A program made the translations under genes and the position numbers. The notes under the pieces were generated by a model. The model was given only the letters and a program-made list of their open reading frames with translations. It was not told the origin of the DNA and searched no databases. This document shows positions 14,927 to 54,479 of a stretch of 62,529 nt of DNA, piece after piece. Position 1 is the stretch's first letter. Every line of letters starts with the position of its first letter. The stretch is from Candidatus Nomurabacteria bacterium (GTDB lineage Bacteria > Patescibacteriota > Minisyncoccia > Phycocordibacterales > Phycocordibacteraceae): positions 1 through 62,529 of the forward strand of contig CALRBA010000002.1 in the NCBI GenBank assembly GCA_943353835.1, in the 5' to 3' direction.

Positions 14927-14945
14927 ACGGTAAAACTATACCATT

Positions 14946-15218
14946 ATGGCATCAACAAAGGCAGGCGGGTCAGCAAAAAACCTTAATACTTCAAATCCAA
15001 AATACCTCGGAGTGAAGCTCTCCGACGGAGCTTCCGCACGACCTGGAATGGTTATTGTTCGCCAGCGCGGAACCAAGATTGAGGCTGGTAAAAACGTCGC
15101 CGTTGGCCGAGACCATACTCTTTTTTCTCTTGCAGCAGGCACAGTAGCCTACCGAACACGCCGTAAAACAAACTTCACCGGTCGTATCATCACCAAAACA
15201 GTCGCTGAGGTCCTTTAA
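14946..15218 (+). CDS. rpmA: 50S ribosomal protein L27
   Basis: MASTKAGGSAKNLNTSNPKYLGVK... and RQRGTKIEAGKNVAVGRDHTLF are typical of L27. Confidence 0.95.
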   Translation: MASTKAGGSAKNLNTSNPKYLGVKLSDGASARPGMVIVRQRGTKIEAGKNVAVGRDHTLFSLAAGTVAYRTRRKTNFTGRIITKTVAEVL

Positions 15219-15697: not shown

Positions 15698-15704
15698 ATC
15701 CAAA

Positions 15705-16151: not shown

Positions 16152-16201
16152 CTTTTCATCTTACCGTATCTGATTTACATAGTCCATAGTCAAAATGTTT
16201 G

Positions 16202-16235
16202 TTCCTTATGCTGGCCTATAGGCTCCGATATGGAA
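16202..16235. repeat. 34-bp dyad-symmetric element, copy 1 (TTCCTTATGCTGGCCTATAGGCTCCGATATGGAA)
   Basis: 8-nt arms TTCCTTAT/ATATGGAA around the palindromic core GCCTATAGGC. Lies 3 nt downstream of the PaaX-like stop codon. Confidence 0.8.
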
Positions 16236-16238
16236 TAT

Positions 16239-16832
16239 TCAACTAAGAGGAACTGGACCGAGATGGAAGTGTTCACGCAGGCTCTTATCTGATTCAAGAG
16301 CTTCCGCGACAAAAGAACGTACTTCACCAACTCCGCTCTTGAGATGAGCACGAACAAGCGAAACGAATTCATCGCATGGATACGGATACACCCATACGCT
16401 GTCTTGAATTCTCACGAACCCAGCGCCATCTAATAACCGACGAAGTTGGTTGCGTATACGCCTTCGTCGCTCACTAATATCAAAAATAAATACACGCCAC
16501 TTCCCGTCCCAAAACGCTTGCTCTTGGATGGTGTATTCTCCAAATTCAATTTCTACCATCGTTTTTCGTCCCTTTTCGGTAATCAGAATTCGCCGCGCAC
16601 CGCGCTCTCCAGAAACCGTCACGAAACCACCCTCTTCAAGCCTGATCACTCCTTGTCGAATGCGCTGATAGAGTTGGGCGCGATTCTTGGCAGGGCGATC
16701 CAGATGCTTCAAAAGCCGAATCATTTTGGGTGCCACAAGAGCGACACTGATAACCCCTGCAATGGCAAACGAACGTAGTAGTAAATTCGTAATCGGAACT
16801 CTCTTTTGCTTCTGCATTTTTCTTATTTTCAT
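16239..16832 (-). CDS. PaaX-like winged-helix regulator with Cas2/VapD-like ferredoxin-fold domain
   Basis: wHTH-like segment (LYQRIRQGVIRLEEGGFVTVSGERGARRILITEKG) followed by WDGKWRVFIFDISERRRRIRNQLRRLLDGAGFVRIQDSVWVYPYP, as in the PaaX family. Confidence 0.6.
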   Translation of the reverse strand: MKIRKMQKQKRVPITNLLLRSFAIAGVISVALVAPKMIRLLKHLDRPAKNRAQLYQRIRQGVIRLEEGGFVTVSGERGARRILITEKGRKTMVEIEFGEYTIQEQAFWDGKWRVFIFDISERRRRIRNQLRRLLDGAGFVRIQDSVWVYPYPCDEFVSLVRAHLKSGVGEVRSFVAEALESDKSLREHFHLGPVPLS

Positions 16833-16834
16833 TA

Positions 16835-16868
16835 TTCCTTATTGTAGCCTATAGGCTCTCATATGGAA
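16835..16868. repeat. 34-bp dyad-symmetric element, copy 2 (TTCCTTATTGTAGCCTATAGGCTCTCATATGGAA)
   Basis: Same architecture as copy 1. It ends 2 nt upstream of the PaaX-like ATG. On the mRNA strand its arm supplies AAGGAA just before the ATG. Confidence 0.8.
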
Positions 16869-16949
16869 CATTGGTTATTTAGATGGTGTGTTGAGAACTG
16901 CTGTGTAGTGAAATAGAAAACAAAAAGCCACGCGGGTCCTGTGTCGCAA

Positions 16950-18203
16950 TCATTTACCCGTAGTCAAAAATTTGATGGCACGCGCCATTTGAGGGTCTTT
17001 TTTCGCTATGGCGTCCGCTTGCGTGAATGGAATTATAATATCAGGAGTAACGCCGTTGCCCATAATCCAATTGCCGGCTGGAGTTATCCAGCGAGCGACG
17101 GTGACTTTCAGAGAACCGTCTCCGAGGTCTATCAGAGTTTGCACGGAACCCTTGCCAAATGACTTCGTACCGATAACAGTCGCCACCTTATGGTCCTGTA
17201 GCGCGCCAGCAAATATTTCTGAAGCAGAGGCTGAACCTCCGTCAATGAGCACTACTATTTTAGTTCCGTCAGGCACGTCATTGTAGCCGAGACTTGTGTG
17301 AATCTGATTTTCTTCTTTATTGTCAAAATCTTCAGTTACTACGGTAGTACCCTTAGGCAGGAAGTGGCTTGCGATATCCACAGCTGAATCAAGGTATCCT
17401 CCCGGATTACCTCGCAGGTCTATGACAAGTTTCTTTGAACCCGAGTTTTTAAATCGTACGAACGCCTGATTGAAAAGGTCGGCAGAACTGGCTGTGAACT
17501 GATAGAGCGCGATATGATACACACCGCTTGCTTCATCCAGACCGTCTTCAGTTTCAGGGACTTGAATCGTATCTCTGATAATCTTTATTTCTATAGCTTT
17601 ACCGTCGCGAATAATTGTGAATTCAACAGTCGTGCCGACAGGACCGCGGATCTGGCTAACGGCCTTTTCTACCGAGAGACCGTCGGTGGACTTACCGTCA
17701 ATCGTAATGATTTGGTCGCCAGCCTTAATGCCTGCATCATCAGCCGGAGTGCCCTTTAACGGCGCTACAACAGTTAAAACATCGTTCTTAATGCTAATCT
17801 CCATCCCGACACCGGCGAAGCTACCTGAAATACTTTCTGCAAATACCTTAGCCTCTTTCGGCGGGAAATAAACCGTATATGGGTCACCGTACGAAGAAGC
17901 TAATCCCTCTATTGCTCCGAATATACGTTCTTTTATTGAAGGTGCTGTTGAAGATGCGTTCGTAATAACATAATTCGTTTCAAGTGCATTCCACGCTTTC
18001 CAGAAATCGGTAAGGTCGGCGCTCGGATTCGGAGTCGCATCAAGTCCGTCTCCGATGAGCGGAATGCGCGAGACGATTGATTGTGTTGAACCGCTACCAC
18101 CAACGAAGAGTCCTACTCCAAACGCTATTGCAGCTACAAGCGCGAAGGAAGCACCGCGAACGGCGATTGCATGCCCACGTCTATAGGCTTCTCTGGAATC
18201 CAT
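16950..18203 (-). CDS. ctpA: Carboxy-terminal processing protease (S41) with PDZ domain
   Basis: PDZ segment GIKAGDQIITIDG and S41 motif DLRGNPGGYL, with an N-terminal TM anchor. Confidence 0.85.
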   Translation of the reverse strand: MDSREAYRRGHAIAVRGASFALVAAIAFGVGLFVGGSGSTQSIVSRIPLIGDGLDATPNPSADLTDFWKAWNALETNYVITNASSTAPSIKERIFGAIEGLASSYGDPYTVYFPPKEAKVFAESISGSFAGVGMEISIKNDVLTVVAPLKGTPADDAGIKAGDQIITIDGKSTDGLSVEKAVSQIRGPVGTTVEFTIIRDGKAIEIKIIRDTIQVPETEDGLDEASGVYHIALYQFTASSADLFNQAFVRFKNSGSKKLVIDLRGNPGGYLDSAVDIASHFLPKGTTVVTEDFDNKEENQIHTSLGYNDVPDGTKIVVLIDGGSASASEIFAGALQDHKVATVIGTKSFGKGSVQTLIDLGDGSLKVTVARWITPAGNWIMGNGVTPDIIIPFTQADAIAKKDPQMARAIKFLTTGK

Positions 18204-18258
18204 TTGCGGTAGTTTAACACACCATTTAGTCGGAATGTGTGTATGTTATTCTAAACGC

Positions 18259-19179
18259 ATGATATTCAGGCATGAGTATAAGGGCGGCGTGTGGGTTGAC
18301 CTTGAACAGCCGAGTGAAAATGATATACGTCAGATTGCCGAAGAATTCTCAGTCTGCGAACACATTGAGAAAGAGCTTATCTACCCTACCCCAATGCCAC
18401 TTGTGTCCGTTGACGAGAATATGGCGTTGTTGGTACTCCACTTTCCCACGCACGGCGTAAACGACGGAGAAATAAAGAGCCAGGAAGTTGACATAGTAGT
18501 CGGAAAAAATTTCATCATAACCGTACGCTATGAGGTCGTTGCACCACTGCATCACTTGAAGAAACTTCTTGAAGCACAGAGTCTGGTTGAAGGCCATACA
18601 CAAATTACGACCGATGTTATGCTGGAAGTTCTTTTCGCACATCTCTATACGTCGGTACGCGACCACATCAATCACGTAGCCGATAACCTCTCACGCGTTG
18701 AAAAGGAAATGTTTGACGGTCGTGAGAGGATGACGGTGCGTTCAATTTCAAATATCAGCCGTGAATTCCTACATGCCGAAGCATCTCTCGCCACTCAAGA
18801 AGAATCTTTAAGCGATTTTATGAGAGCTATGTCCCAACTTAAATTTTTTGACGAATCTTTCAAGTTACGAGCTGAGCGTATAAAAACCGTGCGTTCAAAC
18901 GTGGCGAGGGTAGTTAAGACGCATAGAGCAGTCGCCACGGAACTAAGGGAAACAAATATCGCCCTCCTTTCTGCGAAACAGAACGAGATAATAAAAATAC
19001 TGACAGTGGTGAGTTTCATCTTCCTCCCGCTTGCCTTTATTGCCAAAATCTTCGCCATGAAGGTTGAGTACATGCCATTTGTAGACGACCCGAATGGTTT
19101 CTGGATAATCCTCGGCTTCATGTTTTTCATCGCGCTCGCGCTTATGTTCTATGTTTCAAGAAAACGCTGGATCAATTAG
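18259..19179 (+). CDS. CorA-family divalent cation transporter-like protein with non-canonical pore motif
   Basis: CorA-like length and architecture with two C-terminal TM helices. The position of YGMNF-x-MPE is occupied by FAMKVEYMPF. Start set at ATG 18259. Confidence 0.65.
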   Translation: MIFRHEYKGGVWVDLEQPSENDIRQIAEEFSVCEHIEKELIYPTPMPLVSVDENMALLVLHFPTHGVNDGEIKSQEVDIVVGKNFIITVRYEVVAPLHHLKKLLEAQSLVEGHTQITTDVMLEVLFAHLYTSVRDHINHVADNLSRVEKEMFDGRERMTVRSISNISREFLHAEASLATQEESLSDFMRAMSQLKFFDESFKLRAERIKTVRSNVARVVKTHRAVATELRETNIALLSAKQNEIIKILTVVSFIFLPLAFIAKIFAMKVEYMPFVDDPNGFWIILGFMFFIALALMFYVSRKRWIN

Positions 19180-19183
19180 AAAT

Positions 19184-20644
19184 ATGGAGTGGTTACGTAC
19201 CATATTCGGGATCCGTGAGCGAAAAAAGCATGGCCTGCCATCACCTGTTTTTCTCACCAACACGCTCTCGGGCAAGAAAGAACTTTTCATATCACAGCGA
19301 CCCGGGATCGTTCTCTTTTATTCCTGCGGGCCGACGGTCTACGGTCCGGCATTGATTGGTAATCTCCGCGCATACGTCTTTTCAGACACGATTGCTCGGG
19401 TATTACAATGCGCCGGCTACAGAGTACAACGCGTAATCAATATCACCGATGTCGGACATATGGTCGGTGACAATGATGTTGGTGAAGATAAAATGAGTGT
19501 TGGTGCAAAACGAGAAAAGGCCACACCGGAAGAAATTGCCGATCGCTACACCAAACTTTTTATTGAAGATCTAGAGGACTTGCATATACACACTGAAGAT
19601 ATTCAATTCCCTCGCGCAACTGCATATATAAAAGAACAAATAGCACTAGCAAAAACACTAGAAGAAAAAGGGATTGCTTATCGTCTGTCGGACGGTCTCT
19701 ACTTTGACACGCAAAAGTTTCCAAACTACGGGAAGCTAGGAGGTCTCTCTGGTGTAAAACTTGAAGCCGGTGCGCGCGTGAAGGTCGTACAAGGAAAGCG
19801 TCATCCTGCCGACTTTGTCCTCTGGAGAGTCGCAAAGCCAAACGATCTCCAGCAGTGGGACAGCCCGTGGGGACGTGGGAATCCCGGTTGGCATATAGAA
19901 TGTTCAGCTATGATTCGCTCGCTCCTAGGACAAGAAATAGACATCCACAGCGGAGGAGAAGACCTTATCGCGACTCATCACAACAATGAAATCGCTCAGT
20001 CAGAAGCGATAAGTGGCCGAACATTTGTTCATTATTGGATGCACAATGCATTTCTAACTATGGGTGGCGAGAAAATCTCAAAATCGCTTGGGAATGGTTT
20101 TTCTCTCTCTGATGTTGTCTCAAAAAGATTCCATCCTCTTTCTGTACGTTACTTTTTCTTACAGGCACACTACCGCACTCCCCTTTCCTTCTCGTGGGAA
20201 GCACTCGCGGGAGCAGAAAGCGCTCTTGATAGGCTTTGGAAAATCTCACGCAATGTTGCGGGTGAGTCCAGACGCAAGGGAGCACATTCCGAGGTACGCG
20301 AACGATTCCTCGCATCTATGCGTGACGACCTTGCTACCCCGCAAGCGCTTGGCATTCTTTGGGACTCTCTGAAAAGCGAGGATTACACACCTGAAGAAAA
20401 ATGGGGACTGATTGAAGATGCAGATACACATCTTGGTCTCTCACTTGTTAATACTCCTCCGGTTGATGCTCTAAAAGAAGAAGATATCCCGATTCAGATA
20501 CGAGATCTTCTCATGCGTCGCGAAACTGCGCGCGCTCATAAGGATTTCAAGACAGCCGATCGCATTCGTGATGAAATAGAAAAGAGTGGATATCATGTGG
20601 ATGACGGCCCATTTGGAGCAGTGTTGACTCGGACGACTTTTTGA
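19184..20644 (+). CDS. cysS: Cysteinyl-tRNA synthetase
   Basis: CGPTVYGP...IGNLRAY (HIGH region) and KISKSLGN (KMSKS). Start set at ATG 19184, just after the corA-like stop. Confidence 0.9.
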   Translation: MEWLRTIFGIRERKKHGLPSPVFLTNTLSGKKELFISQRPGIVLFYSCGPTVYGPALIGNLRAYVFSDTIARVLQCAGYRVQRVINITDVGHMVGDNDVGEDKMSVGAKREKATPEEIADRYTKLFIEDLEDLHIHTEDIQFPRATAYIKEQIALAKTLEEKGIAYRLSDGLYFDTQKFPNYGKLGGLSGVKLEAGARVKVVQGKRHPADFVLWRVAKPNDLQQWDSPWGRGNPGWHIECSAMIRSLLGQEIDIHSGGEDLIATHHNNEIAQSEAISGRTFVHYWMHNAFLTMGGEKISKSLGNGFSLSDVVSKRFHPLSVRYFFLQAHYRTPLSFSWEALAGAESALDRLWKISRNVAGESRRKGAHSEVRERFLASMRDDLATPQALGILWDSLKSEDYTPEEKWGLIEDADTHLGLSLVNTPPVDALKEEDIPIQIRDLLMRRETARAHKDFKTADRIRDEIEKSGYHVDDGPFGAVLTRTTF

Positions 20645-20658
20645 TACAATTGGTCTTA

Positions 20659-22026
20659 ATGGCTACCATTACAGACCGGAACAGAGTTCCTCCACAGTCT
20701 CTTGAATCGGAGCGAGCCCTCTTGGGCGCGCTCCTACTGAAGCCAGACGCTATTCATGATGTTCTGGACATTATTCATTCGGACTCATTCTATGCTGAGA
20801 AACACCGTCTTATATTCGGCGCGATGCACGAGCTCGCGGGACGTGGAGAGCCGATTGACCTTCTCACTCTCTCGCAGAAGATGCAGGACCAGGGGCTTCT
20901 GGAGCGTGGTGGAGGGCGTTCTTATCTAGCTGAGCTTGTCGGTTCGGCTCCGGCTCCGGGAAATTTTTCTCATTATGCCGAGCTCGTCTCGCGTAAATCA
21001 CTGATGCGTTCATTGATTGATGCCGCATACAATATCGGCGAACTAGCATACGACGAAGCGCGCGACACAATGGAGGTGTTAGATGAAGCAGAAAAAAGTA
21101 TTTATGCCATCGGGGATGCCTCTTCAGCACATACATTCACAGCCATCGGCGACAAGATTCACGAGGCATGGGACCGCATTGAAGCGTTGTCTAAGAAAGA
21201 GGGGGGTATTCGCGGTGTGCCATCGGGTTTCCCCGACCTGGACAATCTCCTTTCTGGCTTCCACCCATCAGACCTCATTATTATCGCGGCACGTCCGTCA
21301 GTCGGCAAGACCTCGCTCGCTCTGGATATCGCTCGTAACGCCGCAGTGCGCCACAACGTCCCCGTCGGCATCTTCTCGCTTGAAATGAGCTCCGAGCAGA
21401 TTATTGACCGTATGCTTTCTGCAGAATCATTCGTAAACTCATGGAAACTGCGCACGGGACAAGTTAAGGAGGAAGAGGATTTCAATCGTATCCGCGACGC
21501 GTTGGAAACGCTTTCAAAGGCTCCAATCTACATTGACGATAAGCCGGGCAACAACATTCTCGCGATGCGCGCGGTCGCGCGAAGACTCAAACGCGACCGC
21601 GGTATCGGGCTTATTATAGTTGACTATCTTCAACTCATGGCGCCGACTTCAACAAAGGCTTCTGACTCTATGGTCCAGCAAGTGACTGAAATCTCACGCT
21701 CGTTGAAGGGCCTCGCGCGCGAACTTAAAGTGCCGGTCATCGCGCTCTCCCAGCTCTCACGCGCGGTAGAACAGCGCGGAGGCAGGCCTCGCCTCTCCGA
21801 CCTGCGCGATTCTGGAAGCATTGAACAGGATGCCGACGTTGTTATATTCATACATCGCGACGATAAGACAAATAAAGAAAGCGAGCGCCCGAACATCGCA
21901 GAAATTATGATAGAAAAGCATCGTAACGGCCCGATTGGTAAAGTGGAATTGTACTTTGACAATAAACGCACGACCTTCCAGCCGGTAGATAAGTCGGGCT
22001 ACGGCGAACTGGCCGCAGAATTCTAA
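20659..22026 (+). CDS. dnaB: Replicative DNA helicase DnaB
   Basis: N-terminal PPQSLESERALLGALL and Walker A ARPSVGKTSLAL. Normal length, so no intein. Confidence 0.95.
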   Translation: MATITDRNRVPPQSLESERALLGALLLKPDAIHDVLDIIHSDSFYAEKHRLIFGAMHELAGRGEPIDLLTLSQKMQDQGLLERGGGRSYLAELVGSAPAPGNFSHYAELVSRKSLMRSLIDAAYNIGELAYDEARDTMEVLDEAEKSIYAIGDASSAHTFTAIGDKIHEAWDRIEALSKKEGGIRGVPSGFPDLDNLLSGFHPSDLIIIAARPSVGKTSLALDIARNAAVRHNVPVGIFSLEMSSEQIIDRMLSAESFVNSWKLRTGQVKEEEDFNRIRDALETLSKAPIYIDDKPGNNILAMRAVARRLKRDRGIGLIIVDYLQLMAPTSTKASDSMVQQVTEISRSLKGLARELKVPVIALSQLSRAVEQRGGRPRLSDLRDSGSIEQDADVVIFIHRDDKTNKESERPNIAEIMIEKHRNGPIGKVELYFDNKRTTFQPVDKSGYGELAAEF

Positions 22027-44358: not shown

Positions 44359-45726
44359 ATGAAAGAAATTATACAGGACGGTGCGGAGGTGCTACGAGAA
44401 ATCGCAAAGCCAGTGCCGGAAAATATGTTCGACTCGGCAGAATTGTCGCGCCTTATTGCTGACATGACCGAAGCGCTCGACGCATTTCCTGAAGGTGTGG
44501 CTATTGCAGCACCACAGATTGGCGTTTCGTATCGTCTATTTCTCGTGCGGAAGGATCGGACATTGCCTCCGCCTCCCGGTAACCAAGGTCAAACCTTGGC
44601 CCAGAATTCTCAAGGTTTGACCTTAAAGCCGGAAGTGGAAGTGTATATAAATCCTGAAATCGTGAAGACTTCGCGTAAGAGAGCGAAGGCAGACGAAGGG
44701 TGCCTATCTGTGCACGGCGTCTACGGGACGACCACGCGACATGAACGCGCCACAATTAAGGCTCGCCGTATTGACGGTTCGCATTTTGAGCGAGGAGCGG
44801 GCGGACTTATGGCGCAGATATTTGAACACGAAGTAGACCATTTAAACGGTATTTTATTTATTGACCACGCAGAACATATAATTCGTATCCCTCACGTGTC
44901 GGAACATCGTTTTGCGTACTTCGGCACTCCAACGGTTGCCGCCCACACACTCGCGGAGCTCATAAAAAAAGGTTTTATACCAGATGTTGTCGTGACGTCT
45001 CCTGATACACAAAAGGGGCGTGGTCTAGTTCTTACACAGTCAGAAACAAAAACTCTCGCTCTCACACACAGCATTCCAGTCATAACTCCAGAAAAATTGG
45101 ACGGGACAGCGATAAAAGATATAAGCGCGTTCGGGTGCGAGTATGCTGTTTGTGTCGCATACGGCAAAATATTTCCGGAAACACTCATAAATGTATTTCC
45201 GATGGGCGTGTTAAATGTGCACTACTCTCTACTGCCGAAGTATCGTGGTGCAACGCCTCTTGAGACGGCACTTCTTAACGGCGAGAATGAAACAGGAGTT
45301 ACTATTCAGAAAATGGTTAGAGAACTTGACGCAGGAGACATACTCGCGCAGGAAGCGACGCCTATCGGGAAGGATGAAACGGCACGCGAACTGCGACCTC
45401 GTCTAATCCAGATGGGCGCAAACCTACTCACCGAAACACTCCCCGCATATCTCTCTGGCGCCATTACGCTGTTCGTACAGGATGCAACATTGGCGACGCG
45501 CGCGTATAAAATTAAAAAAGAAGACGGGCTTCTGTACTTATCTGCTCCCGCAGAAGAAAACTGGAACAAGTATCGCGCGTACGCTGACTCAATCGGTACG
45601 TATTTTTTTGAAAACGGTAAAAGAATTAAAATCACGCTCGCGGAATTCGCCAAAGGCGAATTCCGCGTTCTGCGTGTCATCCAAGAAGGCAAACGCGAAA
45701 CTGTGTATGCCGATCTCTTCCAATAA
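44359..45726 (+). CDS. Fusion protein: peptide deformylase (N) plus methionyl-tRNA formyltransferase (C)
   Basis: Def motifs GVAIAAPQIG, EGCLS and HEVDHLNG, followed after about 20 aa by Fmt motifs (FAYFGTP, SPDTQKGRG, NVHYSLLPKYRGATP, LDAGDIL) in a single uninterrupted 455-aa ORF. Confidence 0.85.
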   Translation: MKEIIQDGAEVLREIAKPVPENMFDSAELSRLIADMTEALDAFPEGVAIAAPQIGVSYRLFLVRKDRTLPPPPGNQGQTLAQNSQGLTLKPEVEVYINPEIVKTSRKRAKADEGCLSVHGVYGTTTRHERATIKARRIDGSHFERGAGGLMAQIFEHEVDHLNGILFIDHAEHIIRIPHVSEHRFAYFGTPTVAAHTLAELIKKGFIPDVVVTSPDTQKGRGLVLTQSETKTLALTHSIPVITPEKLDGTAIKDISAFGCEYAVCVAYGKIFPETLINVFPMGVLNVHYSLLPKYRGATPLETALLNGENETGVTIQKMVRELDAGDILAQEATPIGKDETARELRPRLIQMGANLLTETLPAYLSGAITLFVQDATLATRAYKIKKEDGLLYLSAPAEENWNKYRAYADSIGTYFFENGKRIKITLAEFAKGEFRVLRVIQEGKRETVYADLFQ

Positions 45727-47041: not shown

Positions 47042-47113
47042 TCCGCGGTAGCTCAGTGGTAGAGCGGCTCCCTGTTAAGGAGTTGGTCGTAGGTTCGAAT
47101 CCTACCCGCGGAG
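47042..47113 (+). tRNA. tRNA-Asn (anticodon GUU), no encoded CCA
   Basis: Manual cloverleaf: acceptor TCCGCGG/CCGCGGA, D stem GCTC/GAGC, anticodon loop CTGTTAA, T arm GTAGG-TTCGAAT-CCTAC. Confidence 0.9.
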
Positions 47114-48703
47114 CAAGACAGGATTTTTAGAGTAGAGTTCGTCCAAATCACTAGCATTTAAGCCGTTACTTAGCGGTTCGAACCTATCGTTGATTTCTCG
47201 TGCAACCGGCGCGGCTGTTTCGAGGCGTTTAAGAGAGTCCGGTAGCAAAACACTGAATACTTTGTTGAAAAGCTGGAGGTTCGAACCAAGAGCATAAAGA
47301 ATCTCTTTTTTCTTCGCCAGCGTACCATTCTTAAATTCTGAAGCTGCTCGCTCTGCAAAGGCGAGATGTTTCTCGACATCATCAAGCCAACTATCAAAGC
47401 GACCATGCGCATCGTTCAGTAATTCCTCGGCCCGCGCCTTCTCTTGCGTCAGAATTCCTTTCCGGTGCGTAAACTCCTCTGCAGTAATCTCACCGGCGGC
47501 TCGTAGATCAATCAGGTTATCGAGCTTCTTGGCTATCTGGTCGTACTCCTTTCGCTGTCCTGTCATAATCTTCTCCCGAGTCTCTGCCTCTCCCTTATTC
47601 TGCTCTCGCAAGACGCTCATTGCCCATGTACGGAAAGAAGGCGGGATTTCAATTCGTCCGAGAACCGTGGCTATCTGCTTCTCCAACGTTGCTTCTTCAA
47701 TAACTTTCTGGCTACATTTAACTTCCTTCCGCTTCGTGCAGTGATAGTAAATATAATTATGAACCTTTCCATTCTTCTGCCGCTTCAGCTTATGTTCAGC
47801 CGTAATCATCGCTCCGCACTCTCCACAGAAGATTGGGCCTCGCAGAGCAAAATCATATTCCTTTGGACGCGTCGATACCTTACCTAAAAGAAACTGGATC
47901 TTGTCGAACTCTTCGCGCGTAATCATTGGCTCATGATTTCCGTGATGCAAAGTTCCTTTCGGATATTCAAAATCGCCATAATAAAAAGGGTCACTAAAAA
48001 TCCTATATACCGTGGCTCGTGCTATTTTATTTCCCTGCCGTGTCGTCAGTCCCCATTTTCCACTAGCAACCTCCCATACCTTTTGAGGGTTGTATTGACC
48101 CGTCAGCATCAAGTCCCACATCTTCCGCACTAACGGGAATCGCTCTGCATCTACAATTATTTCTTTCTCGCCTTTGAACTTGAGAGGGTTGGACATGTAG
48201 CCGATGGTCGCGTAGGTCGGATACCATCCTCGCTCCGCTTTTGCTCTCAAACCACGCTTTGTATCAACGCTTAAATCACGAATGAACTGATTGGCCATGC
48301 CAAGCTCAACGGCCATCATAAGAACATTGTCAGTCGAGTAGTAAGCCCTTCCGAAGGTCTGAATTTGCCTCAAGACGCCCTGTTGGAGCATCCAGCTTAT
48401 CTGGCCACCGTCGATAGGGTTGCGGGCCAAACGGTTGAGTTTCCAGCATAGAATCCCATCCGCTTCTCCTGCCTGAACCCGCATCAGCATCTGATTAAAG
48501 ACTGGACGACCTGGACCCTTGGCGGACTGCGATTCCGAAAATCTATCCACCACCTCTAAACCCATTTCGTCAGCAATCTTCTGAAGCTCTGCAATTTGTG
48601 AATCAATAGAGGCCATCTGCCGGTCTTCACTTTCCGAGGACTTTCGGGCGTACAGGAAATATCGCACCTTCTCTCGTCCTGCATCCATCTTCATATACCT
48701 CAT
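47102..48703 (-). CDS. Large serine recombinase (integrase)
   Basis: Resolvase catalytic domain (YARKSSESEDRQ..., CWKLNRLARN), recombinase domain, zinc ribbon (CGECG...YYHC) and C-terminal coiled coil. 533 aa. Confidence 0.9.
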   Translation of the reverse strand: MRYMKMDAGREKVRYFLYARKSSESEDRQMASIDSQIAELQKIADEMGLEVVDRFSESQSAKGPGRPVFNQMLMRVQAGEADGILCWKLNRLARNPIDGGQISWMLQQGVLRQIQTFGRAYYSTDNVLMMAVELGMANQFIRDLSVDTKRGLRAKAERGWYPTYATIGYMSNPLKFKGEKEIIVDAERFPLVRKMWDLMLTGQYNPQKVWEVASGKWGLTTRQGNKIARATVYRIFSDPFYYGDFEYPKGTLHHGNHEPMITREEFDKIQFLLGKVSTRPKEYDFALRGPIFCGECGAMITAEHKLKRQKNGKVHNYIYYHCTKRKEVKCSQKVIEEATLEKQIATVLGRIEIPPSFRTWAMSVLREQNKGEAETREKIMTGQRKEYDQIAKKLDNLIDLRAAGEITAEEFTHRKGILTQEKARAEELLNDAHGRFDSWLDDVEKHLAFAERAASEFKNGTLAKKKEILYALGSNLQLFNKVFSVLLPDSLKRLETAAPVAREINDRFEPLSNGLNASDLDELYSKNPVLLRG

Positions 48704-48888
48704 ATGGTACCGCTAATTTGCCTCCCAGAGACGAGTTTCCCCTTCCACCCCTCAGGCGCATATACCGCTTCCACAAGCCTTACAATCGTCGTCCCGAGCC
48801 TCTCTGCCTCCTTCCTATCCAGATCCACGCCGTACTCAGCTCTATAGAGAGCTATAAGTTCATCGAGGCGAGAATCCGAGATCTTCAT
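48700..48888 (-). CDS. Small hypothetical protein (62 aa), translationally coupled to the recombinase
   Basis: ATGA overlap with the recombinase start. Helical. Could be an accessory or directionality factor, but this is speculative. Confidence 0.45.
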   Translation of the reverse strand: MKISDSRLDELIALYRAEYGVDLDRKEAERLGTTIVRLVEAVYAPEGWKGKLVSGRQISGTI

Positions 48889-48912
48889 ACTCCTAACTTT
48901 TCTCCTGCTTCC

Positions 48913-50277
48913 TTAGAAAGGAATGTCCTCGGGACGAATATCCATCTCCGTCTTGTCTACATCTGTAGTAACGTTCACAATGTTCACGTCATTCACTTCG
49001 CCTTTGATATCAAAGTCTGTGATTCCAAGCCGTTCTTTCCAGAGATCAATACGTTCTTGATTTCTCGAAATTGACAAGCAAAATCCACGACTAGTTCGAT
49101 CTGCTTTCAAATGTAGCCTAGCGCGAAGAATCCAGCCCACTTTCTTTGCGCTTACTGACTCACCGCTCTCCCAATCCAGATTCATCTCTTTCGCAATCTC
49201 TTTAACTAGAACCCCATCGATCTCCGTTTTCTCGTGAATACGTAAGAGCGCGATAATAGCTTCAGACTCCCAAGAAAGTGCGCGATCGGCGATTAGTTCT
49301 TTGTGATAACGCCTGACATGCTCTAAAAGCGTCTCCTGAATCTCTGGGTCTGGCATAACAGCCAGTAAGGGAATGATTATTTGTTGGAGACGTGGGTGAA
49401 GTCCCTCAATTGGCTTGTCCTCGAAAACTAGTGGGTTCCGATAGTTACGAAAGCGCCACGTGAGGAGTTTATTCCGGAGTTCCCGTGCCTCCTCCCAAAA
49501 GCCATCATCTAGACGTATAGGGATGTCAGCACGTAATTTCACCCGCCCCATATCTTCTATGAGAAAGCGGCTCTCTAAGGCTTGGTCATCAAAATTATGC
49601 CTCGTAGCAACGATTTTGGGGCCATATACGTCATAGCTCTTCACGTTGAACGCTCCTTTACCGTTACCTTCTGAACGCAAAACCGCTGTGCCTCTCTGGT
49701 ATCCCGTATTGAGTATCTTTACAAGATCGTTTTTTGCATCGCTGAAGTTCAGATCGGCCTCATCGAGAATTAACGTACCATGCACTTGGTCCAGGATGCG
49801 GAATATCGGGGATGTCGTCGTCGCGCCTGCGGTAAAGATTGGTCGATAGCAGATGGAACCAATCACTTGGAGGAATCGACTTTTGCCACTGCCATAATCA
49901 CCTCGCGCACGTAGATAGGGAAGTTCATTAAGGCGATCATAAATCCATGACAAAAATACATACTGGGTAGCAATTCGTTCAAATGCGGGAGAAATATCTA
50001 CCCGCTTATGAATGAAGGCTTGGATTTCCTCAAGCAATTCTTTGTTCGTGCCATATTCCGCCGCTCGAGAAGGAAAGAGGACTACATTTTTGGCAACTAT
50101 ATCGCTACAAGCATCGAGAGGATAAACCTCTCCGTCTGCTGTGCTGATTGATGGGGCGTGCTGTGCTTTTCCATTCTGATAAATGTAGAAACCAGTTTCC
50201 TTGAGTATTGGGTCGTAGATGGTTTCGGCGATTAAGTCGGTTTGAACAACTGAAGCCTTATGGTTTTTCTTTTTCAT
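48913..50277 (-). CDS. P-loop NTPase, phage/plasmid replication-associated type (DUF3631/primase-C-like)
   Basis: Walker A GDYGSGKS, Walker B LILDEADL, and a C-terminal winged-helix-like segment. 454 aa. Confidence 0.6.
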   Translation of the reverse strand: MKKKNHKASVVQTDLIAETIYDPILKETGFYIYQNGKAQHAPSISTADGEVYPLDACSDIVAKNVVLFPSRAAEYGTNKELLEEIQAFIHKRVDISPAFERIATQYVFLSWIYDRLNELPYLRARGDYGSGKSRFLQVIGSICYRPIFTAGATTTSPIFRILDQVHGTLILDEADLNFSDAKNDLVKILNTGYQRGTAVLRSEGNGKGAFNVKSYDVYGPKIVATRHNFDDQALESRFLIEDMGRVKLRADIPIRLDDGFWEEARELRNKLLTWRFRNYRNPLVFEDKPIEGLHPRLQQIIIPLLAVMPDPEIQETLLEHVRRYHKELIADRALSWESEAIIALLRIHEKTEIDGVLVKEIAKEMNLDWESGESVSAKKVGWILRARLHLKADRTSRGFCLSISRNQERIDLWKERLGITDFDIKGEVNDVNIVNVTTDVDKTEMDIRPEDIPF

Positions 50278-50279
50278 AT

Positions 50280-50335
50280 ATCCATCGCGTGTCCTGTGGT
50301 CGCTCTAGGTGGCGATGGATTCACTTCACCTAGAG
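50280..50335 (-). promoter_or_regulatory. Interleaved 9-bp inverted repeats in the 5' leader of the P-loop gene
   Basis: ATCCATCGC (50280-88) pairs with GCGATGGAT (50312-20). CTCTAGGTG (50303-11) pairs with CACCTAGAG (50327-35). The topology allows a pseudoknot or two alternative hairpins. Confidence 0.5.
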
Positions 50336-50395
50336 CTGCCGCAAGAAACAAGAGTTAGTGATTAAAGTGGACTTACTTATGCACCCCGCGTCCCC

Positions 50396-50454
50396 ATAAA
50401 AAACGAGACGGCAATCGTTGGAAAGATTTCTCTTTCGCTACGATTGCCGTCTCG
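50396..50454 (-). terminator. Intrinsic terminator after the 95-aa gene
   Basis: Perfect 16-bp inverted repeat ACGAGACGGCAATCGT/ACGATTGCCGTCTCGT with a 21-nt loop, followed on the minus strand by UUUUAU. Confidence 0.6.
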
Positions 50455-50546
50455 TGTCGAGGTTCGGGCGGAACTTATCGGGGGTGTTGTTTAAACTATA
50501 TCACTCACGAATATCAAATCAAGATTTCATCCACATGTGGAGAGCC

Positions 50547-50834
50547 CTAGGGCGTACTTTCAGAGAGGTTCGCTAGGCTCATAATCGGTGGCGGCAGGAT
50601 GGGCGTTCCACGAGGGCCACTAATCTCCGTGGCTTGTACTGCCTTGCCCCACGACCGGTCAAATAGCTCCTTAGCGGCCGCTACATCCCCATTCTTGGCC
50701 TTAATGATCAGTGCCTGTGCAATGGGCTGAATTTCCCTCATTGTCATCTCGGCGAACAGCTTTCGCGCCTCCTCGGAGCTCTTAGCTGCGAAGCCCTTTT
50801 TGCGCCCTGCACCTGGTCTGTAGCCGCCTTTCAT
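50547..50834 (-). CDS. Small basic protein with N-terminal GGYRPGAGRKKG motif (phage-type DNA-binding?)
   Basis: 95 aa. The N-terminal Gly/Arg/Lys motif is common in small phage DNA-binding or terminase-small-like proteins. It has its own promoter and terminator. Confidence 0.5.
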   Translation of the reverse strand: MKGGYRPGAGRKKGFAAKSSEEARKLFAEMTMREIQPIAQALIIKAKNGDVAAAKELFDRSWGKAVQATEISGPRGTPILPPPIMSLANLSESTP

Positions 50835-50933
50835 GATGGATAAGAATCAATGGATTCAATGCCTTTATTATACGCTTTCTCAGCCAAAATGCTCGATTTC
50901 TGTGGATGAAAGTGGGGTGCAGCGCACTGGTTA

Positions 50934-51107
50934 CCCGCCACAACGTCATTCTCCTGTGCTATGGTTTGACACAGAAGAGCCTAAACCTTCTTGCGTTGGC
51001 AAGGGCATGGTTCGAAATCGCAGAACACAGAAACCCCGTCATCAGGGGCGTGTTCTGCGTTATAGGGGGAAACTCCTATAGGGCCGCAAGGCCCACCTGG
51101 TGGCGGG
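50934..51107 (+). ncRNA. Candidate structured RNA domain (five hairpins closed by a long-range helix), family unknown
   Basis: CCCGCCAC (50934-41) pairs with GTGGCGGG (51100-07). Inside this helix: CTCCTGTG/CACAGaaGAG; CTTGC-GTTG-GCAAG; CGCAGAACAC...GTGTTCTGCG with an inner CCCC-gtcatca-GGGG; TATAGGGG-GAAA-CTCCTATA; GGGCC-GCAA-GGCCC. The GNRA loops read correctly only on the + strand. Confidence 0.5.
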
Positions 51108-51157
51108 ATTTGTGTTCCTATACAAAACCTCCTCAGGCTTTATTTAATAGATTGAAA

Positions 51158-52213
51158 ATGAATATGAAAAAAATTCTACCAGTGCTTGTCATCCCGTTTT
51201 TCATGTTGCCGTCAATATCGTTTGCTGCGGCTCTCACCCCGCAACAGTCGTCTAGCCTCATTGCTGTTGTTCAGTCATCCCCAGGTACACCGGCAAGTGC
51301 TTTCGTTTCTCTCATAACTGCTTTCTCGAACATAACGACAGTTCAGGCCGCTAGTCTCATCACAGTTATTCAAGCAGCTCCTAGTGTACCCGCGAAAGCT
51401 TTTGTAGATCTTCTAACTTCTTTTACTATCGACGCAGCAACACAAGTAACGAGTCAGGCGATGACTCCAACAACACAAAATCCGACAGTGCCGGCAATAG
51501 CTGTGCAGTCAACGCAGTCAGCAACGCCAGCAGCTCCAGCAACTCCTTCTTCGTCAACAACTCCAGCAGTACCAGCAACACCAGCGGTACCCGCAAACCC
51601 ACAACCTACAACCCAAGCACCAACAAGCCCAACGACCCTTCTGCAAGATAGTTTTGATTCCTACACAGATGGAACCTTATTGGGTCAAGGCGGATGGCAG
51701 AACTATTCCAGCGGACAAAATTTTATCGTGCGAAGTGCCACTACTTCTGCGGGTACAGTCGTTGTGTACAATAACTCTATTGGAGACAGTGTTATCTCAA
51801 AAGACGGTGTGTACTTACCAGATGGCAAACAAGCGGTGTACATCAAAACAGAAAACAGATTAAATTGGGGTGCATATGGAGATGGAAATGCACAGGTACG
51901 TATATCGCAAGGAAAATCCTTTGCTTCTGATATTTTTGCTTCTGTTTCTTTCAAGAAAGACGGGAACGTTGCTTATTACGACTCCAGTTACATGTATCAA
52001 AACTTTGCGACTTACAACGACAATGAATGGACTCTCCTAGAAATCCAATGGCGTTCGAGTGATAAGAAAGTGAGATATAGAGTCAATGAAGGTGTATGGA
52101 CAGACTGGTTGATGTTCAAAGGAGCATCTGCTTTCACTGGCTTTAACAATCTTGGATTCGACTTCTACCTACCAAGTGGTTCAGGCGGAGTTTACTACGA
52201 TAATCTTCACTAA
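51158..52213 (+). CDS. Secreted protein: signal peptide, two ~30-aa repeats, Pro/Thr/Ala linker, C-terminal beta-rich (LamG/lectin-like) domain
   Basis: MNMKKILPVLVIPFFMLPSISFAAA signal peptide. Repeats SSLIAVVQSSPGTPASAFVSLITAFS and ASLITVIQAAPSVPAKAFVDLLTSFT. PT-rich linker. The upstream part of the 435-aa ORF is discounted. Confidence 0.7.
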   Translation: MNMKKILPVLVIPFFMLPSISFAAALTPQQSSSLIAVVQSSPGTPASAFVSLITAFSNITTVQAASLITVIQAAPSVPAKAFVDLLTSFTIDAATQVTSQAMTPTTQNPTVPAIAVQSTQSATPAAPATPSSSTTPAVPATPAVPANPQPTTQAPTSPTTLLQDSFDSYTDGTLLGQGGWQNYSSGQNFIVRSATTSAGTVVVYNNSIGDSVISKDGVYLPDGKQAVYIKTENRLNWGAYGDGNAQVRISQGKSFASDIFASVSFKKDGNVAYYDSSYMYQNFATYNDNEWTLLEIQWRSSDKKVRYRVNEGVWTDWLMFKGASAFTGFNNLGFDFYLPSGSGGVYYDNLH

Positions 52214-52295
52214 CTCATCTTCGTCGAAACGTGATAGCCATTCGAGGCGCTAGATTGTCTTTAAATCTATCTCGGGAGTAGAATGCGGGTGAAGT

Positions 52296-53450
52296 ATGAA
52301 AGCGATTAAAGAGCTACAAGAAGATATCGAGAAATTGAATGTGGAAAACCTAGCCTTTCATAAAAGTTATGAAAATCGAACTGGTCACGGCTGGGCGCAA
52401 TGGAGTGAATATCAAAAGTGGATCAATTTCAATGTCGGAACGCTAGACAGTATTCAGACTTTAGTTAAGGAGCACCGTTATCGAGACTGCTATATTCTGA
52501 TTCGCCCCGTTCTGGAAGCATACCTACTTATTAAATTATCAATGCTCGGTAATACGATCTTTTTTGACCTGCTTCCAAAAAAGAACGGGAAGGTAATGGA
52601 ATCTAAAGAGGAGCTACTCGCAAGGGCAAAGAACGATCCTGAATTAAAAAAAGCGGACGTAGTGAAAATGAAATTGATTAAAGATGAGAGTGGTTATAGA
52701 GTTCGGATTTTATTTCGCGAGAAACCAGTTGGGGGCTCGCGCGAATTCGTCCCACGCCATTATTTCTTTGCTAAAGAATATGACCCTGATACTCAGTATT
52801 TGAGCGATTTAATTCTGAAAAATCAATGGCACGGAATAAAATATCCTACAAAAGACCACAAGAAAAAGAATCGTGATATTCAGAGAAACTTTCTTCGCAT
52901 AGGTGCTCTGCTCGATTTCTTTAGCGTAAAAAAGTTTGCATCTCCAAGAGAGCGCCAAGCAATTTTTGTACACTATAGTTATCTGAGCAAATTTACTCAT
53001 TCAACTGTTAGAGCATACGACTCGTTGGCTAAAAACCATAATGGATCGAACCCCTCAAATCTAGAATCCTTGTTTAAGAAAAATACCTTGCATGAGTTAC
53101 TCATCCTGCTTTATTGTGCCTTCCTTTCTCTTTACTTTTTAAAACTTCAACTTGACTATTTTGGGAGAGAATCAGATCTGGTCATTAGGGCGAAACGCAG
53201 GAAAGAGATTAGAGAACTTACAAAAGCAATAGAAGATAAATACTCATTCTTTTGGTTTATTTACAATAAGCCACATACGTTCGATCTTTGGCAGTACCAA
53301 TCCAAAAGAGAGATATCGCAGAACGCCAATAAAAAAATTCCTATTCCTTATTACGTAGATCCATATCATCGTCTAGAGGGCTTGATGTCGACCTGGAGCA
53401 ACCCTATCTTAGGCAGACACGAGCCACCCCCAATCCTTAGAGCTGAATGA
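52296..53450 (+). CDS. Hypothetical cytoplasmic helical protein (384 aa), possible Abi-like/DUF5677-like
   Basis: Lys-rich and AT-rich. Contains IRPVLEAYLLIKL and YSYLSKFTHST, reminiscent of the R..xE and Y..LS...H helices of AbiV-type proteins. Assignment from memory only. Confidence 0.6.
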   Translation: MKAIKELQEDIEKLNVENLAFHKSYENRTGHGWAQWSEYQKWINFNVGTLDSIQTLVKEHRYRDCYILIRPVLEAYLLIKLSMLGNTIFFDLLPKKNGKVMESKEELLARAKNDPELKKADVVKMKLIKDESGYRVRILFREKPVGGSREFVPRHYFFAKEYDPDTQYLSDLILKNQWHGIKYPTKDHKKKNRDIQRNFLRIGALLDFFSVKKFASPRERQAIFVHYSYLSKFTHSTVRAYDSLAKNHNGSNPSNLESLFKKNTLHELLILLYCAFLSLYFLKLQLDYFGRESDLVIRAKRRKEIRELTKAIEDKYSFFWFIYNKPHTFDLWQYQSKREISQNANKKIPIPYYVDPYHRLEGLMSTWSNPILGRHEPPPILRAE

Positions 53451-53632
53451 GTAAGGTCTGATAATTACATTTAAGAAAAAATTTGTGAGAGCGTATATCC
53501 ATCGGTTCGACAACATCGGCTGACTGGCATGGTGGGGTCTGCCAATTAGTCTGAGTCGCTCAGAAATAGCTGTGAACATGTGTACATAATGAACATCATT
53601 CCTGCAGTAAAAGGTCGACTTCTCTACGCAAC

Positions 53633-53665
53633 AGAGGTTCGAACATCCTCTATCCAGCGGAGCCA
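53633..53665 (+). other. Degenerate tRNA 3'-half-like fragment (candidate attR or old att remnant)
   Basis: AGAGGTTCGAACATCCTCTATCCAGCGGAGCCA shares AGGTTCGAA and GCGGAGC with the T arm and acceptor of tRNA-Asn (GTAGGTTCGAATCCTACCCGCGGAGCA). No complete tRNA can be folded here. Confidence 0.4.
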
Positions 53666-53666
53666 G

Positions 53667-54479
53667 TTAGTAGGTGTTAAACCAAAATCCAAAACCGTTC
53701 CACAATGAGACGTATTTTCCTATTTTCGTGCGTCTGATGGAGAGTGTCAGAGCTTCTGTGCGAAGCGACTTGCCGATACGACCCGCGAGCGAGCGCATAT
53801 ATGTTCCAGAACCGCATATTACTTTCAAACGTATAACAGTAAAATTTCTTTCATGTGAGGATTCAAAAAGCTGTTCCCATTTTTCTAGAATAGAATCTAC
53901 GCGAAAGTCTTCTCCCATACGTTTAGACGGCTCGTCAGTTCTCTGAACATAATCAAGGAGTCTAGATATCCTTCCGGCGAGTTCTTTGCAGGAAATCATG
54001 TATAAATTTATAAGCTTTATTTTGAAAATGCGCTCAAAATGCTTTGGTATTTCAATATCTTTTAATTTTCCTTCAAGTGCATAAAGAAAAAGCGGTTTGC
54101 CGTTTACTGTTTTTGACGAAAACTTCGGATACTCGCGCAGATGCTCACCGAGTTCATCACGAAGAGTGTTCACAGTGACTCGTTCGTCTGGAGTAGTAGT
54201 CTGACTAGAATACTCCGGTATGCCGAGTACGTCGCCAGTATCGCTACCGATATCTAGTAATACTTCTATTTCATACTCTTTATCCAGATTTGTATATTCT
54301 CTTTGTCGTTTACACTCATCTCCGAGAAGTATTAGTAATTTGCCGGACGCCATCGGGTCTAGACGGCCCGCATAGCTGGCTGATACATTTTTGTATTCTA
54401 GATTTTTTATTCTCCATGCGTGTATCGCCGACAGTGGCGTCTCGCCGACTTTCTTATCCAATACTACGAATCGTTTCAT
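53667..54479 (-). CDS. truB: tRNA pseudouridine synthase, TruB family
   Basis: GRLDPMASGKLLILLG catalytic Asp motif. 270 aa. Confidence 0.7.
   Translation of the reverse strand: MKRFVVLDKKVGETPLSAIHAWRIKNLEYKNVSASYAGRLDPMASGKLLILLGDECKRQREYTNLDKEYEIEVLLDIGSDTGDVLGIPEYSSQTTTPDERVTVNTLRDELGEHLREYPKFSSKTVNGKPLFLYALEGKLKDIEIPKHFERIFKIKLINLYMISCKELAGRISRLLDYVQRTDEPSKRMGEDFRVDSILEKWEQLFESSHERNFTVIRLKVICGSGTYMRSLAGRIGKSLRTEALTLSIRRTKIGKYVSLWNGFGFWFNTY

Follow-up and report, generated by a model that had tools for sequence, protein, structure and literature searches.

A serine-integrase element of 6.5 kb at tRNA-Asn in a Patescibacteria genome and the context of its LOOT RNA

What occupies the end of tRNA-Asn in a 62,529-nucleotide stretch of a Candidatus Nomurabacteria genome (contig CALRBA010000002.1, positions 1 to 62,529; here called the window)? 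The candidate phyla radiation (CPR), or Patescibacteria, consists of uncultivated episymbionts with reduced genomes whose mobile elements are, to our knowledge, barely described, and the literature that we searched on CPR with serine recombinase and prophage, LOOT, and DUF5681 yielded nothing describing this element or the context of the LOOT RNA that it carries. The block of about 6.5 kb at the tRNA-Asn end is a mobile element in a CPR/Patescibacteria host. It had first been picked out by inspection of the DNA without database searches (the sequence-only reading), and that observation was borne out nearly to the base: every feature listed lies at or near the position given for it, and the ends could be refined to a 7-bp GCGGAGC repeat. 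We consider it quite probable that the block is a site-specific integrative element of phage or plasmid ancestry that belongs to a modular Patescibacteria family and is still excising. What the locus adds is a serine-integrase element of CPR with exact borders, a tRNA-Asn target and signs of activity, the modular family to which it belongs, and both a genomic context and an extended structure for LOOT.

Attachment sites and probable excision

The element comprises 6,549 bp between two copies of the 7-bp core GCGGAGC (47108-47114 and 53657-53663; features are listed in Table 1). Its integrase, of 533 amino acids (aa), has an N-terminal catalytic Resolvase domain (PF00239, E = 1.4e-19, residues 16-159) followed by Recombinase (PF07508, 3e-08, residues 190-271) and Zn_ribbon_recom (PF13408, 1.2e-09, residues 287-347), and it matches the integrase family phrog_95 over residues 7-479 (3.3e-63). 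A resolvase domain together with a C-terminal extension of more than 300 aa that bears the Recombinase and zinc ribbon domains identifies a large serine recombinase, as the sequence-only reading had proposed. The best NCBIfam matches are CcrB (1.5e-25), XisF, and CcrC/A, all of them far under the family cutoffs.

The integrase open reading frame (ORF) spans the att core. Its final two codons and stop sit inside tRNA-Asn, and the tRNA-end repeat GCGGAGC recurs at the far boundary (53657-53663), the arrangement expected of integration into a tRNA gene. In the integrated state the protein ends in ...LLRG*, and the excised form is predicted to end in ...LLRWIEDVRTSVA*, 9 aa longer. P0249, an integrase at least 90% identical, ends in ...LLRE, as predicted if it had integrated into a variant tRNA-Asn of the kind present in L030 (L numbers designate the loci and contigs compared). 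A 537-aa member of the same cluster, P0248, was considered as the excised form and rejected; it is an N-terminally longer variant that ends in ...LLRG and provides no evidence for a circle.

The reconstructed empty site (attB) retains the full tRNA with its encoded CCA (GCGGAG-CCA), whereas after integration tRNA-Asn is followed by CAA and the encoded CCA is lost (47108-47117 vs 53657-53666). At the far end, next to truB, the sequence-only reading had reported a degenerate tRNA-3'-like fragment. It is present, and at 53636-53663 it resembles the T-arm and acceptor 3' strand of a tRNA; it is not a displaced host tRNA end. Because a homologous arm is kept in L257, sequence comparison indicates that the fragment is the element's own attP arm. 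The motif GGTTCGAA lies 28 nt from the core end in this arm versus 23 nt in the tRNA and attB, that is, 5 nt farther. Serine integrases follow a spacing rule that distinguishes attP from attB, and the 5-nt offset of GGTTCGAA is reminiscent of it.

An independent assembly of the same strain, the Logan contigs of run ERR3719144 (0 mismatches), splits the locus in three: L094 ends at 47114, L084 covers 47108-53663 (6,556 bp), and L086, on the truB side, starts at 53657. Adjacent contigs thus share only the 7-bp core, not k-1 bases. Logan assemblies use k=31, and in such a graph a 7-bp overlap means that there are branches on both sides of each core, as expected if attL, attR, attB, and attP k-mers are all present. 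This is strong but indirect support for the coexistence of integrated, empty-site, and excised junctions in the reads and for ongoing excision. The 6,556-bp contig recurs in two samples, and contigs of other samples also break inside tRNA-Asn, at varying positions. Mobility, which had been suggested from the DNA alone, is thus backed by contigs that break at both cores in ERR3719144 and by L257, which is inserted at tRNA-Asn with the same core and has other cargo and another flank.

Directly upstream of the integrase, and overlapping its start, is a conserved 62-aa ORF, listed as coupled in the sequence-only reading. Its homologues stand directly upstream of a serine recombinase in L002, L249, L250, and L253 regardless of the replicase type, tblastn gives matches in L053 and L080, and no Pfam family matches it. 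We infer from this position that the 62-aa protein is a candidate directionality or accessory factor. Integration would proceed by recombinase-mediated joining of attP to the tRNA-Asn end, which would leave the tRNA body intact and change only the encoded CCA to CAA; excision by the recombinase and its 62-aa partner, as candidate directionality factor, would release a 6,549-bp circle. Both the att sites and the integrase lend themselves to direct tests in vitro, and they could be of use for the genetic manipulation of CPR or as a new serine integrase with a tRNA target.

Replication module, relatives, and cargo

The third gene from the tRNA encodes a 454-aa ATPase that has no match in Pfam, PHROGs, NCBIfam, or PADLOC. 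Its Walker A (GDYGSGKSR) and Walker B (LILDEAD) motifs are invariant across 32 homologues, which places it among the P-loop ATPases, and the family has at least 2,389 homologues, none with a Pfam domain. Among GTDB representative genomes there are 256 relatives, mostly in Patescibacteria and also in Acidobacteriota, Alphaproteobacteria, Planctomycetota, and others; relatives of the integrase are likewise mostly in Patescibacteria, in agreement with the CPR-type host that had been suspected. A serine recombinase lies within the fetched flank of 55 of the 80 genome loci that carry the ATPase. In CPR the recombinase gene follows that of the ATPase on one strand, in most cases with a tRNA just past it, while elsewhere it is upstream and divergent; L034-L082, non-CPR loci from Acidobacteriota, Alphaproteobacteria, Planctomycetota, Nitrospinota, and others, show the divergent arrangement of ATPase and large serine recombinase without LOOT.

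Searched by structure with Foldseek, the AlphaFold2 model of the ATPase matched the helicase region of NrS-1 best (6k9e, E = 5e-6, probability 1.0), followed by PriRep1 (7pds, 4e-5), MCM/ORC, and BrxL. Homologous ATPase domains are fused after an NrS-1 pol HBD domain on a 17.6-kb Haladaptatus plasmid and in P0057, and after a Toprim/DnaG-like primase on the 21.5-kb Deinococcus plasmid pDrdII. Homologues are very scarce in collections of cultured phages and plasmids, limited to two plasmids and one metagenomic virus, where they are annotated as hypothetical, and more distant homologues occur in 20- to 40-kb IMG/VR viral contigs. Given the structure matches, the primase fusions of the homologues, and the Prim-Pol/PriCT protein found at the same place in L253, the ATPase appears to be the element's replicative helicase or initiator, here stand-alone without its own primase. 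Its designation as a Walker ATPase of replication type may accordingly be narrowed, by fold and fusions, to the helicase module of primase-helicase replicases. With thousands of members across phyla and without a Pfam model, this stand-alone helicase family is a candidate mobile-element replicase absent from annotation pipelines.

An inverted repeat (GCTCTAGGTG/CACCTAGAGC) lies 15-75 nt upstream of the helicase-like gene and is kept in L257 (4290-4370), where it carries a compensatory change, and in L002 (~9930-10000). At 50289-50349 it is a candidate operator, origin, or 5' untranslated hairpin. The excised circle would be copied by the element's helicase in concert with a primase and polymerase supplied by the host or a helper, and the inverted repeat may serve as operator or origin.

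A second element, L257, has 72% nucleotide identity over the ATPase, the 62-aa ORF, and the integrase. It shares the tRNA-Asn site with its core, its attP arm is homologous, and it differs in its cargo (a Ser/Thr kinase) and chromosomal flank. More distant relatives at tRNA-Asn are L030 and L029, the latter sharing its grx-hpf neighbours with the window. A far end for L030 set by the 7-mer core was rejected, the single match being at chance level and lacking a tRNA-like arm. Members of the family exchange modules. In L253 (669-10543) a Prim-Pol/PriCT_1 protein takes the place of the ATPase in the same layout; LOOT again lies in the divergent intergenic region, and the 384-aa cargo protein has a homologue there. 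In L258 and L259 a tyrosine integrase and an HTH_17 protein replace the serine recombinase and small ORF. Directly past the integrase of L249 (the same locus as L009), at 13553-21362, are genes for a Peptidase_M78 protein, a PLD-SNF2 helicase, and an MmeI/Eco57I-type methylase, which looks like a defence-island neighbourhood.

Three further proteins complete the element. The 95-aa basic protein resembles Pfam DUF5681 (6e-05, under the family cutoff) and phrog_15261 (7.1e-08), and its independent termination, noted before, fits a perfect 16-bp hairpin and T-run on its own strand. The 351-aa protein has a signal peptide, a repeat region, a Pro/Thr linker, and a C-terminal domain of about residues 160-351; the Pro/Thr/Ala-rich linker is encoded by a 9-nt periodic repeat (51508-51600). 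Modelled with AlphaFold2 (predicted local distance difference test [pLDDT] score, 94.9), the C-terminal domain matches legume lectins, TtX122, and a sialidase carbohydrate-binding module in Foldseek (E = 1e-5 to 2.5e-7, template modelling [TM] scores of 0.5-0.66). The model thus matches the beta-sandwich of the ConA-like lectin/glucanase fold, and the signal peptide and fold together uphold the description of a secreted lectin-like protein. Among its 227 homologues, the C-terminal domain is joined in CPR to peptidoglycan-binding, collagen, PEP-CTERM, or trypsin modules, and a host-interaction role for this secreted protein, itself a prediction, is plausible.

The 384-aa protein has a match to Pfam DUF5677 (8.2e-05) under the cutoff and only 6 homologues in 5.8 billion clusters, one of which (55% identity) occupies the same distal position in L253. 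The DUF5677 domain is reported to be enriched next to serine recombinases; the single DUF5677 ORF tested for phage defence was not among the five reported as active (PMC12632615). As PADLOC, too, gave no match for any of the six element proteins, the defence role that had been envisaged for the cargo is unsupported.

The LOOT RNA and its genomic neighbourhood

The roughly 320-bp structured non-coding region of the sequence-only reading holds a known RNA family, LOOT (RF03000), with a score of 73.6 bits against a gathering threshold of 46.4 (E = 7.5e-13) at 50978-51094, covering model positions 1-121 of 121. Our own covariance model scores it at 149.7 bits over 50960-51112, and its fold has a z-score of -4.5. 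In addition to the helices P1 to P4, a 12-bp GC-rich pseudoknot joins the P2 loop to the 3' tail. It is 99% paired, 10 of its 12 pairs show compensatory changes among 92 distinct sequences, none of 500 shuffles matched the observed values, and register-shifted controls were ~40% paired. The 3' strand of the pseudoknot lies outside the Rfam model, and a conserved U-run comes next. An apical stem of P2 like that drawn in Rfam was rejected, there being no covariation support and 78.3% pairing versus 76.8% in shuffles. GNRA/GAAA-capped hairpins are present, and the nucleotides CCUAAAC/GCAUGG presumably resemble a tetraloop receptor. A -10-like TATGGT stands at 50960-65, upstream of the window's LOOT; in most other LOOTs the segment from a TATAAT-like -10 box to P1 contains a conserved ACAAYTGAATAA-like motif, ~10-35 nt before P1, that probably forms the 5' terminus of the RNA.

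The LOOT motif originates in a survey of 224 candidate RNAs (PMC5737381), where, as far as the article itself indicates, it is described only in supplements. It has been modelled by CaCoFold with ~43 base pairs in six helices (PMC7657543), and Rfam classes it as a small RNA (sRNA). No description of the genomic context or pseudoknot of LOOT was found in the literature searched, whose coverage left the supplementary LOOT entry of PMC5737381 outside.

With our own covariance model, LOOT was found in 16 ATPase loci, all of them CPR, and in none of the non-CPR ATPase loci; usually 0.5-3.5 kb separate it from the ATPase, upstream of which it lies in divergent orientation. We also assembled a LOOT-seeded set of 127 loci by LOOT sequence pattern (120 metagenome and 7 IMG/VR loci; all 95 of the 95 submitted were confirmed by the covariance model). 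The commonest neighbour in this set is a large serine recombinase, present in 37 of 68 loci with at least 2 kb of upstream flank and in 20 of 30 with at least 3 kb on both sides, often divergent and starting 115-192 nt from LOOT. Other neighbours are an Sf6-like small terminase, a large terminase, a DNA methylase, and Prim-Pol/AAA_25. A tie between LOOT and the ATPase family was considered and rejected, with one strong case (L188) and two weak ones in the 127 loci; the steady partner is the serine recombinase. Because of these neighbours, serine recombinase, terminases, methylase, and Prim-Pol, LOOT is assigned to CPR temperate phages and related serine-recombinase elements, and the element of the window is a small member without structural genes.

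These neighbours bear on how the element spreads. It may be a phage satellite that depends on a helper for packaging and spread, the helper coming from the CPR phages with LOOT and a serine integrase, with which the element has its regulatory and cargo architecture in common. Small, and with an integrase and replication module in the absence of structural genes, it has the make-up of a satellite; LOOT-seeded loci with small and large terminases, methylase, and Prim-Pol beside the same integrase-LOOT-cargo layout imply that full-size phages with the same modules exist; distant ATPase homologues reside on 20- to 40-kb IMG/VR viral contigs; and the 95-aa protein has a match in the phage family phrog_15261. 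Against this stand the content of the element, in which we identified no packaging-redirection or capsid-size gene, cos/pac site, or helper-sensing repressor and recognized no small-terminase or capsid-remodelling gene, the lack of an identified helper within the window, and the occurrence of the ATPase family on small plasmids as well. On balance we think a satellite somewhat improbable. Whichever the vehicle, cell-to-cell transfer would rely on something external, either a helper phage of this group or DNA uptake.

What LOOT does is suggested by what follows it. A same-strand ORF follows LOOT in 103 of 107 unique loci, with its start at a median of 81 nt past the GGAAAC loop motif (interquartile range, 64-96) and ~40 nt past the U-run. 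An N-terminal hydrophobic segment is encoded by 69 of these 103 ORFs, which represent many unrelated families. In L177 two tandem LOOT-ORF units (597-731 and 1385-1535) stand ~650 nt apart, each with its own same-strand ORF, and in L257 and L001 LOOT is co-oriented with the replication and integrase genes. In the window, LOOT stands first in the rightward unit of cargo genes. The best reading makes LOOT, as we infer, a leader or attenuator, close to the promoter, of swappable cargo cassettes.

The U-run complicates this reading, as it could mean full termination, in which case LOOT would be released as an sRNA by itself and the gene after it would require a separate promoter. A trans-acting sRNA that ends at the U-run and functions in immunity or copy control, like the P4 CI RNA or plasmid antisense RNAs, would fit the sRNA type given by Rfam, the GC-rich 12-bp helix with the conserved U-run immediately after it, and the position of LOOT in the divergent control region by the integrase/replication operon, often 115-192 nt from the integrase start. 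It fits less well with the narrowly fixed distance of the same-strand ORF in 103 of 107 loci, since ~40 nt after the U-run is too short for an independent promoter and leader, with the tandem LOOT-gene units, with the co-orientation in L257 and L001, and with conserved nucleotides that look structural (CCUAAAC/GCAUGG and the GAAA loop) rather than targeting. We regard a trans-acting sRNA as less likely, though a serious rival, and continue with the leader or attenuator. While the element is integrated, LOOT would be transcribed from a promoter ~10-20 nt ahead of it, and read-through of the pseudoknot and U-run would allow expression of the secreted lectin-fold protein and perhaps of the DUF5677-like protein; LOOT would act in cis on the cargo genes and play no cofactor part in recombination or replication. 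An orphan Rfam family thereby gains a concrete context and, with it, a testable regulatory hypothesis.

A broader picture can be drawn only speculatively, and we doubt that all of it will hold. A large guild of temperate CPR phages and of mini-derivatives of these may await description, with LOOT as its signature regulatory leader, a compact 5' RNA with a tetraloop/receptor-like contact and a pseudoknot, in which pseudoknot and U-run would gate "moron" cassettes for secreted or surface proteins that remodel the episymbiont surface. The 6.5-kb element might then be the first recognized Patescibacteria phage satellite or replicative integrative plasmid family, composed of swappable integrase, replicase, and LOOT-cargo modules.

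The element among known systems

Pfam, PHROGs, and NCBIfam gave no match to capsid, portal, terminase, tail, or lysis families from the six ORFs, which argues against a prophage in the usual sense, and Pfam and NCBIfam gave none to relaxase, coupling protein, or type IV secretion families, which likewise sets the element apart from integrative and conjugative or mobilizable elements. With PADLOC added to these searches, no structural, packaging, or conjugation gene was found, in keeping with the original description as a minimal integrative plasmid or satellite-like element.

Several observations weigh against an integrative element that still excises. Primase, repressor, packaging, and transfer genes are not recognizable in it, so that autonomous replication and spread are unproven. 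Excision is deduced from contig ends and the Logan k of 31, not from attB/attP junction sequence, and mixtures of strains or hosts could give some of the same graph branches. Dyad symmetry in the reconstructed attB and attP is weak, with ambiguous centres (13-16 of 28), and was not used to place a crossover dinucleotide. Among the 31 serine recombinases of the LOOT-seeded set, no more than 7 are next to a tRNA. The GC content of the element, 0.457 versus 0.484, shows no shift; the expected difference in composition from the flanks appears instead in tetranucleotide usage, whose deviation of 0.207 (mean, 0.131; standard deviation, 0.023) is the highest among 6.5-kb windows, with 0 of 86 host windows as high.

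The identity of the ATPase also invites caution. Likeness to the C-terminal helicase of the NrS-1 primase-polymerase and to the pRN1/PriRep1 replicases lies in the best structural matches and in homologues fused to HBD or Toprim/DnaG domains. Unlike those replicases, the ATPase is stand-alone, has no primase or polymerase domain, and shows negligible sequence similarity to solved structures; its Foldseek TM-scores are ~0.3, and its model has a pLDDT of 70, falling below 50 in the P-loop core, residues 146-218. A search of the ATPase profile against PDB sequences was set aside as uninformative, its sole match being the Walker A motif of MCM8 (E = 0.5).

That the block is a decayed prophage or island remnant fixed in the chromosome, with contig breaks caused by strain mixture or assembly noise, would accord with the absent GC shift, with excision support that comes without recovered junction sequence, and with the varying breaks in tRNA-Asn of other samples' contigs, but is very unlikely, as three contigs of one assembly, all with 0 mismatches, start or end right at the 7-bp cores, the 6,556-bp contig is found in 2 samples, all six ORFs are intact, the integrase, small ORF, and ATPase are kept as a unit across many genomes, and L257 combines the same core and attP arm with other cargo and another flank.

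By analogy, the element most resembles, in function, staphylococcal cassette chromosome (SCC)-type cassettes, phage satellites and tycheposons, and integrative plasmids. SCC elements such as SCCmec are 20-60 kb in size, occur in staphylococci, target rlmH, and encode CcrAB or CcrC large serine recombinases with an upstream operon for the Cch helicase. In both kinds of element a large serine recombinase acts on the 3' end of a housekeeping gene, and its own gene is immediately preceded, in the same orientation, by small ORFs and an ATPase gene of replicative-helicase type; cargo varies, and virion and conjugation genes are absent. In contrast to SCC, the element targets tRNA-Asn rather than rlmH, has one recombinase rather than a CcrAB pair, measures 6.5 rather than 20-60 kb, carries LOOT, and resides in a CPR host; its ATPase is NrS-1-like by fold and fusion partners and need not be a Cch.

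Phage-inducible chromosomal islands (PICIs) such as the Staphylococcus aureus pathogenicity islands, P4-like satellites, and the tycheposons of marine cyanobacteria are small islands at tRNAs or other conserved sites that combine an integrase, a primase/helicase module, and cargo. Like these, the element lacks a full virion set, is apparently competent for excision, and belongs to a family that swaps integrase and replication genes (here in L253 and L258). Unlike them, it lacks recognizable packaging, capsid-remodelling, and helper-sensing genes, is smaller than typical PICIs, and has a serine integrase, a helicase without primase, and a LOOT leader; a serine-type integrase is unusual for tRNA targets. 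The LOOT of the window is a full-length match to RF03000 with P1-P4 present, and what goes beyond the Rfam entry is the 12-bp pseudoknot to the 3' tail with its U-run, the CPR serine-recombinase context, and the fixed place before secreted or membrane ORFs.

Table 1 Features of the element and its borders (positions in the window)
Feature	Position	Strand	Basis or sequence
tRNA-Asn(GTT), integration target; last 7 nt are the left att core	47042-47114	+	ARAGORN; Rfam tRNA 74.4 bits
Left att core GCGGAGC, attL crossover region	47108-47114		Identical to 53657-53663; Logan L094 end, L084 start
Large serine recombinase (integrase), 533 aa	47102-48703	-	Pfam, PHROGs
62-aa ORF overlapping integrase start	48700-48888	-	ORF list; homologues at same position in relatives
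Helicase-type P-loop ATPase, 454 aa	48913-50277	-	Walker A GDYGSGKSR, Walker B LILDEAD
Conserved inverted repeat just upstream of ATPase start	50289-50349		GCTCTAGGTG / CACCTAGAGC; repeat search
Intrinsic-terminator-like hairpin 3' of 95-aa gene	50403-50455	-	Perfect 16-bp stem, then T-run; repeat search and sequence
95-aa basic protein, DUF5681-like; first gene of leftward module	50547-50834	-	Pfam, PHROGs
Non-coding stretch holding LOOT	50835-51157		Rfam RF03000
LOOT RNA including pseudoknot and U-run	50977-51112	+	Rfam and own covariance model
LOOT helix P1	50977-51013	+	
LOOT helix P2	51019-51059	+	
LOOT helix P3	51061-80	+	
LOOT helix P4	51081-94	+	
LOOT pseudoknot strands, P2 loop and 3' tail	51035-51046 and 51096-51107	+	
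LOOT U-run	51108-51112	+	
Secreted cargo protein, 351 aa, with predicted ConA-like lectin-fold domain	51158-52213	+	AlphaFold2, Foldseek
Helical cargo protein, 384 aa, weakly DUF5677-like	52296-53450	+	Pfam
tRNA T-arm/acceptor-like attP arm with core GCGGAGC	53636-53663	+	GGTTCGAACATCCTCTATCCA + core; sequence; homologous arm in L257
Right att core GCGGAGC	53657-53663		L084 end at 53663; L086 start at 53657
truB, directly adjoining tRNA-like fragment	53667-54479		Pfam
Empty-site junction attB, reconstructed			...TCGAATCCTACCCGCGGAGCCAGTTAGTAGGTG
Circle junction attP, reconstructed			...CATCCTCTATCCAGCGGAGCAAGACAGGATTTTTAG
attL, left part/right part			GGTTCGAATCCTACCCGCGGAGC/AAGACAGGATTTTTAGAG
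attR, left part/right part			GAACATCCTCTATCCAGCGGAGC/CAGTTAGTAGGTGTTAAAC
attB, left part/right part			GGTTCGAATCCTACCCGCGGAGC/CAGTTAGTAGGTGTTAAAC
attP, left part/right part			GAACATCCTCTATCCAGCGGAGC/AAGACAGGATTTTTAGAG

An ORF of 435 aa at 50906-52213 is spurious, its frame crossing LOOT; the start of the secreted cargo protein is put at 51158 by gene callers as well as by the RNA evidence. Outside the element, the Pfam listing shows a def-fmt fusion, a 455-aa gene at 44359-45726 that joins peptide deformylase and methionyl-tRNA formyltransferase N-terminal domains.

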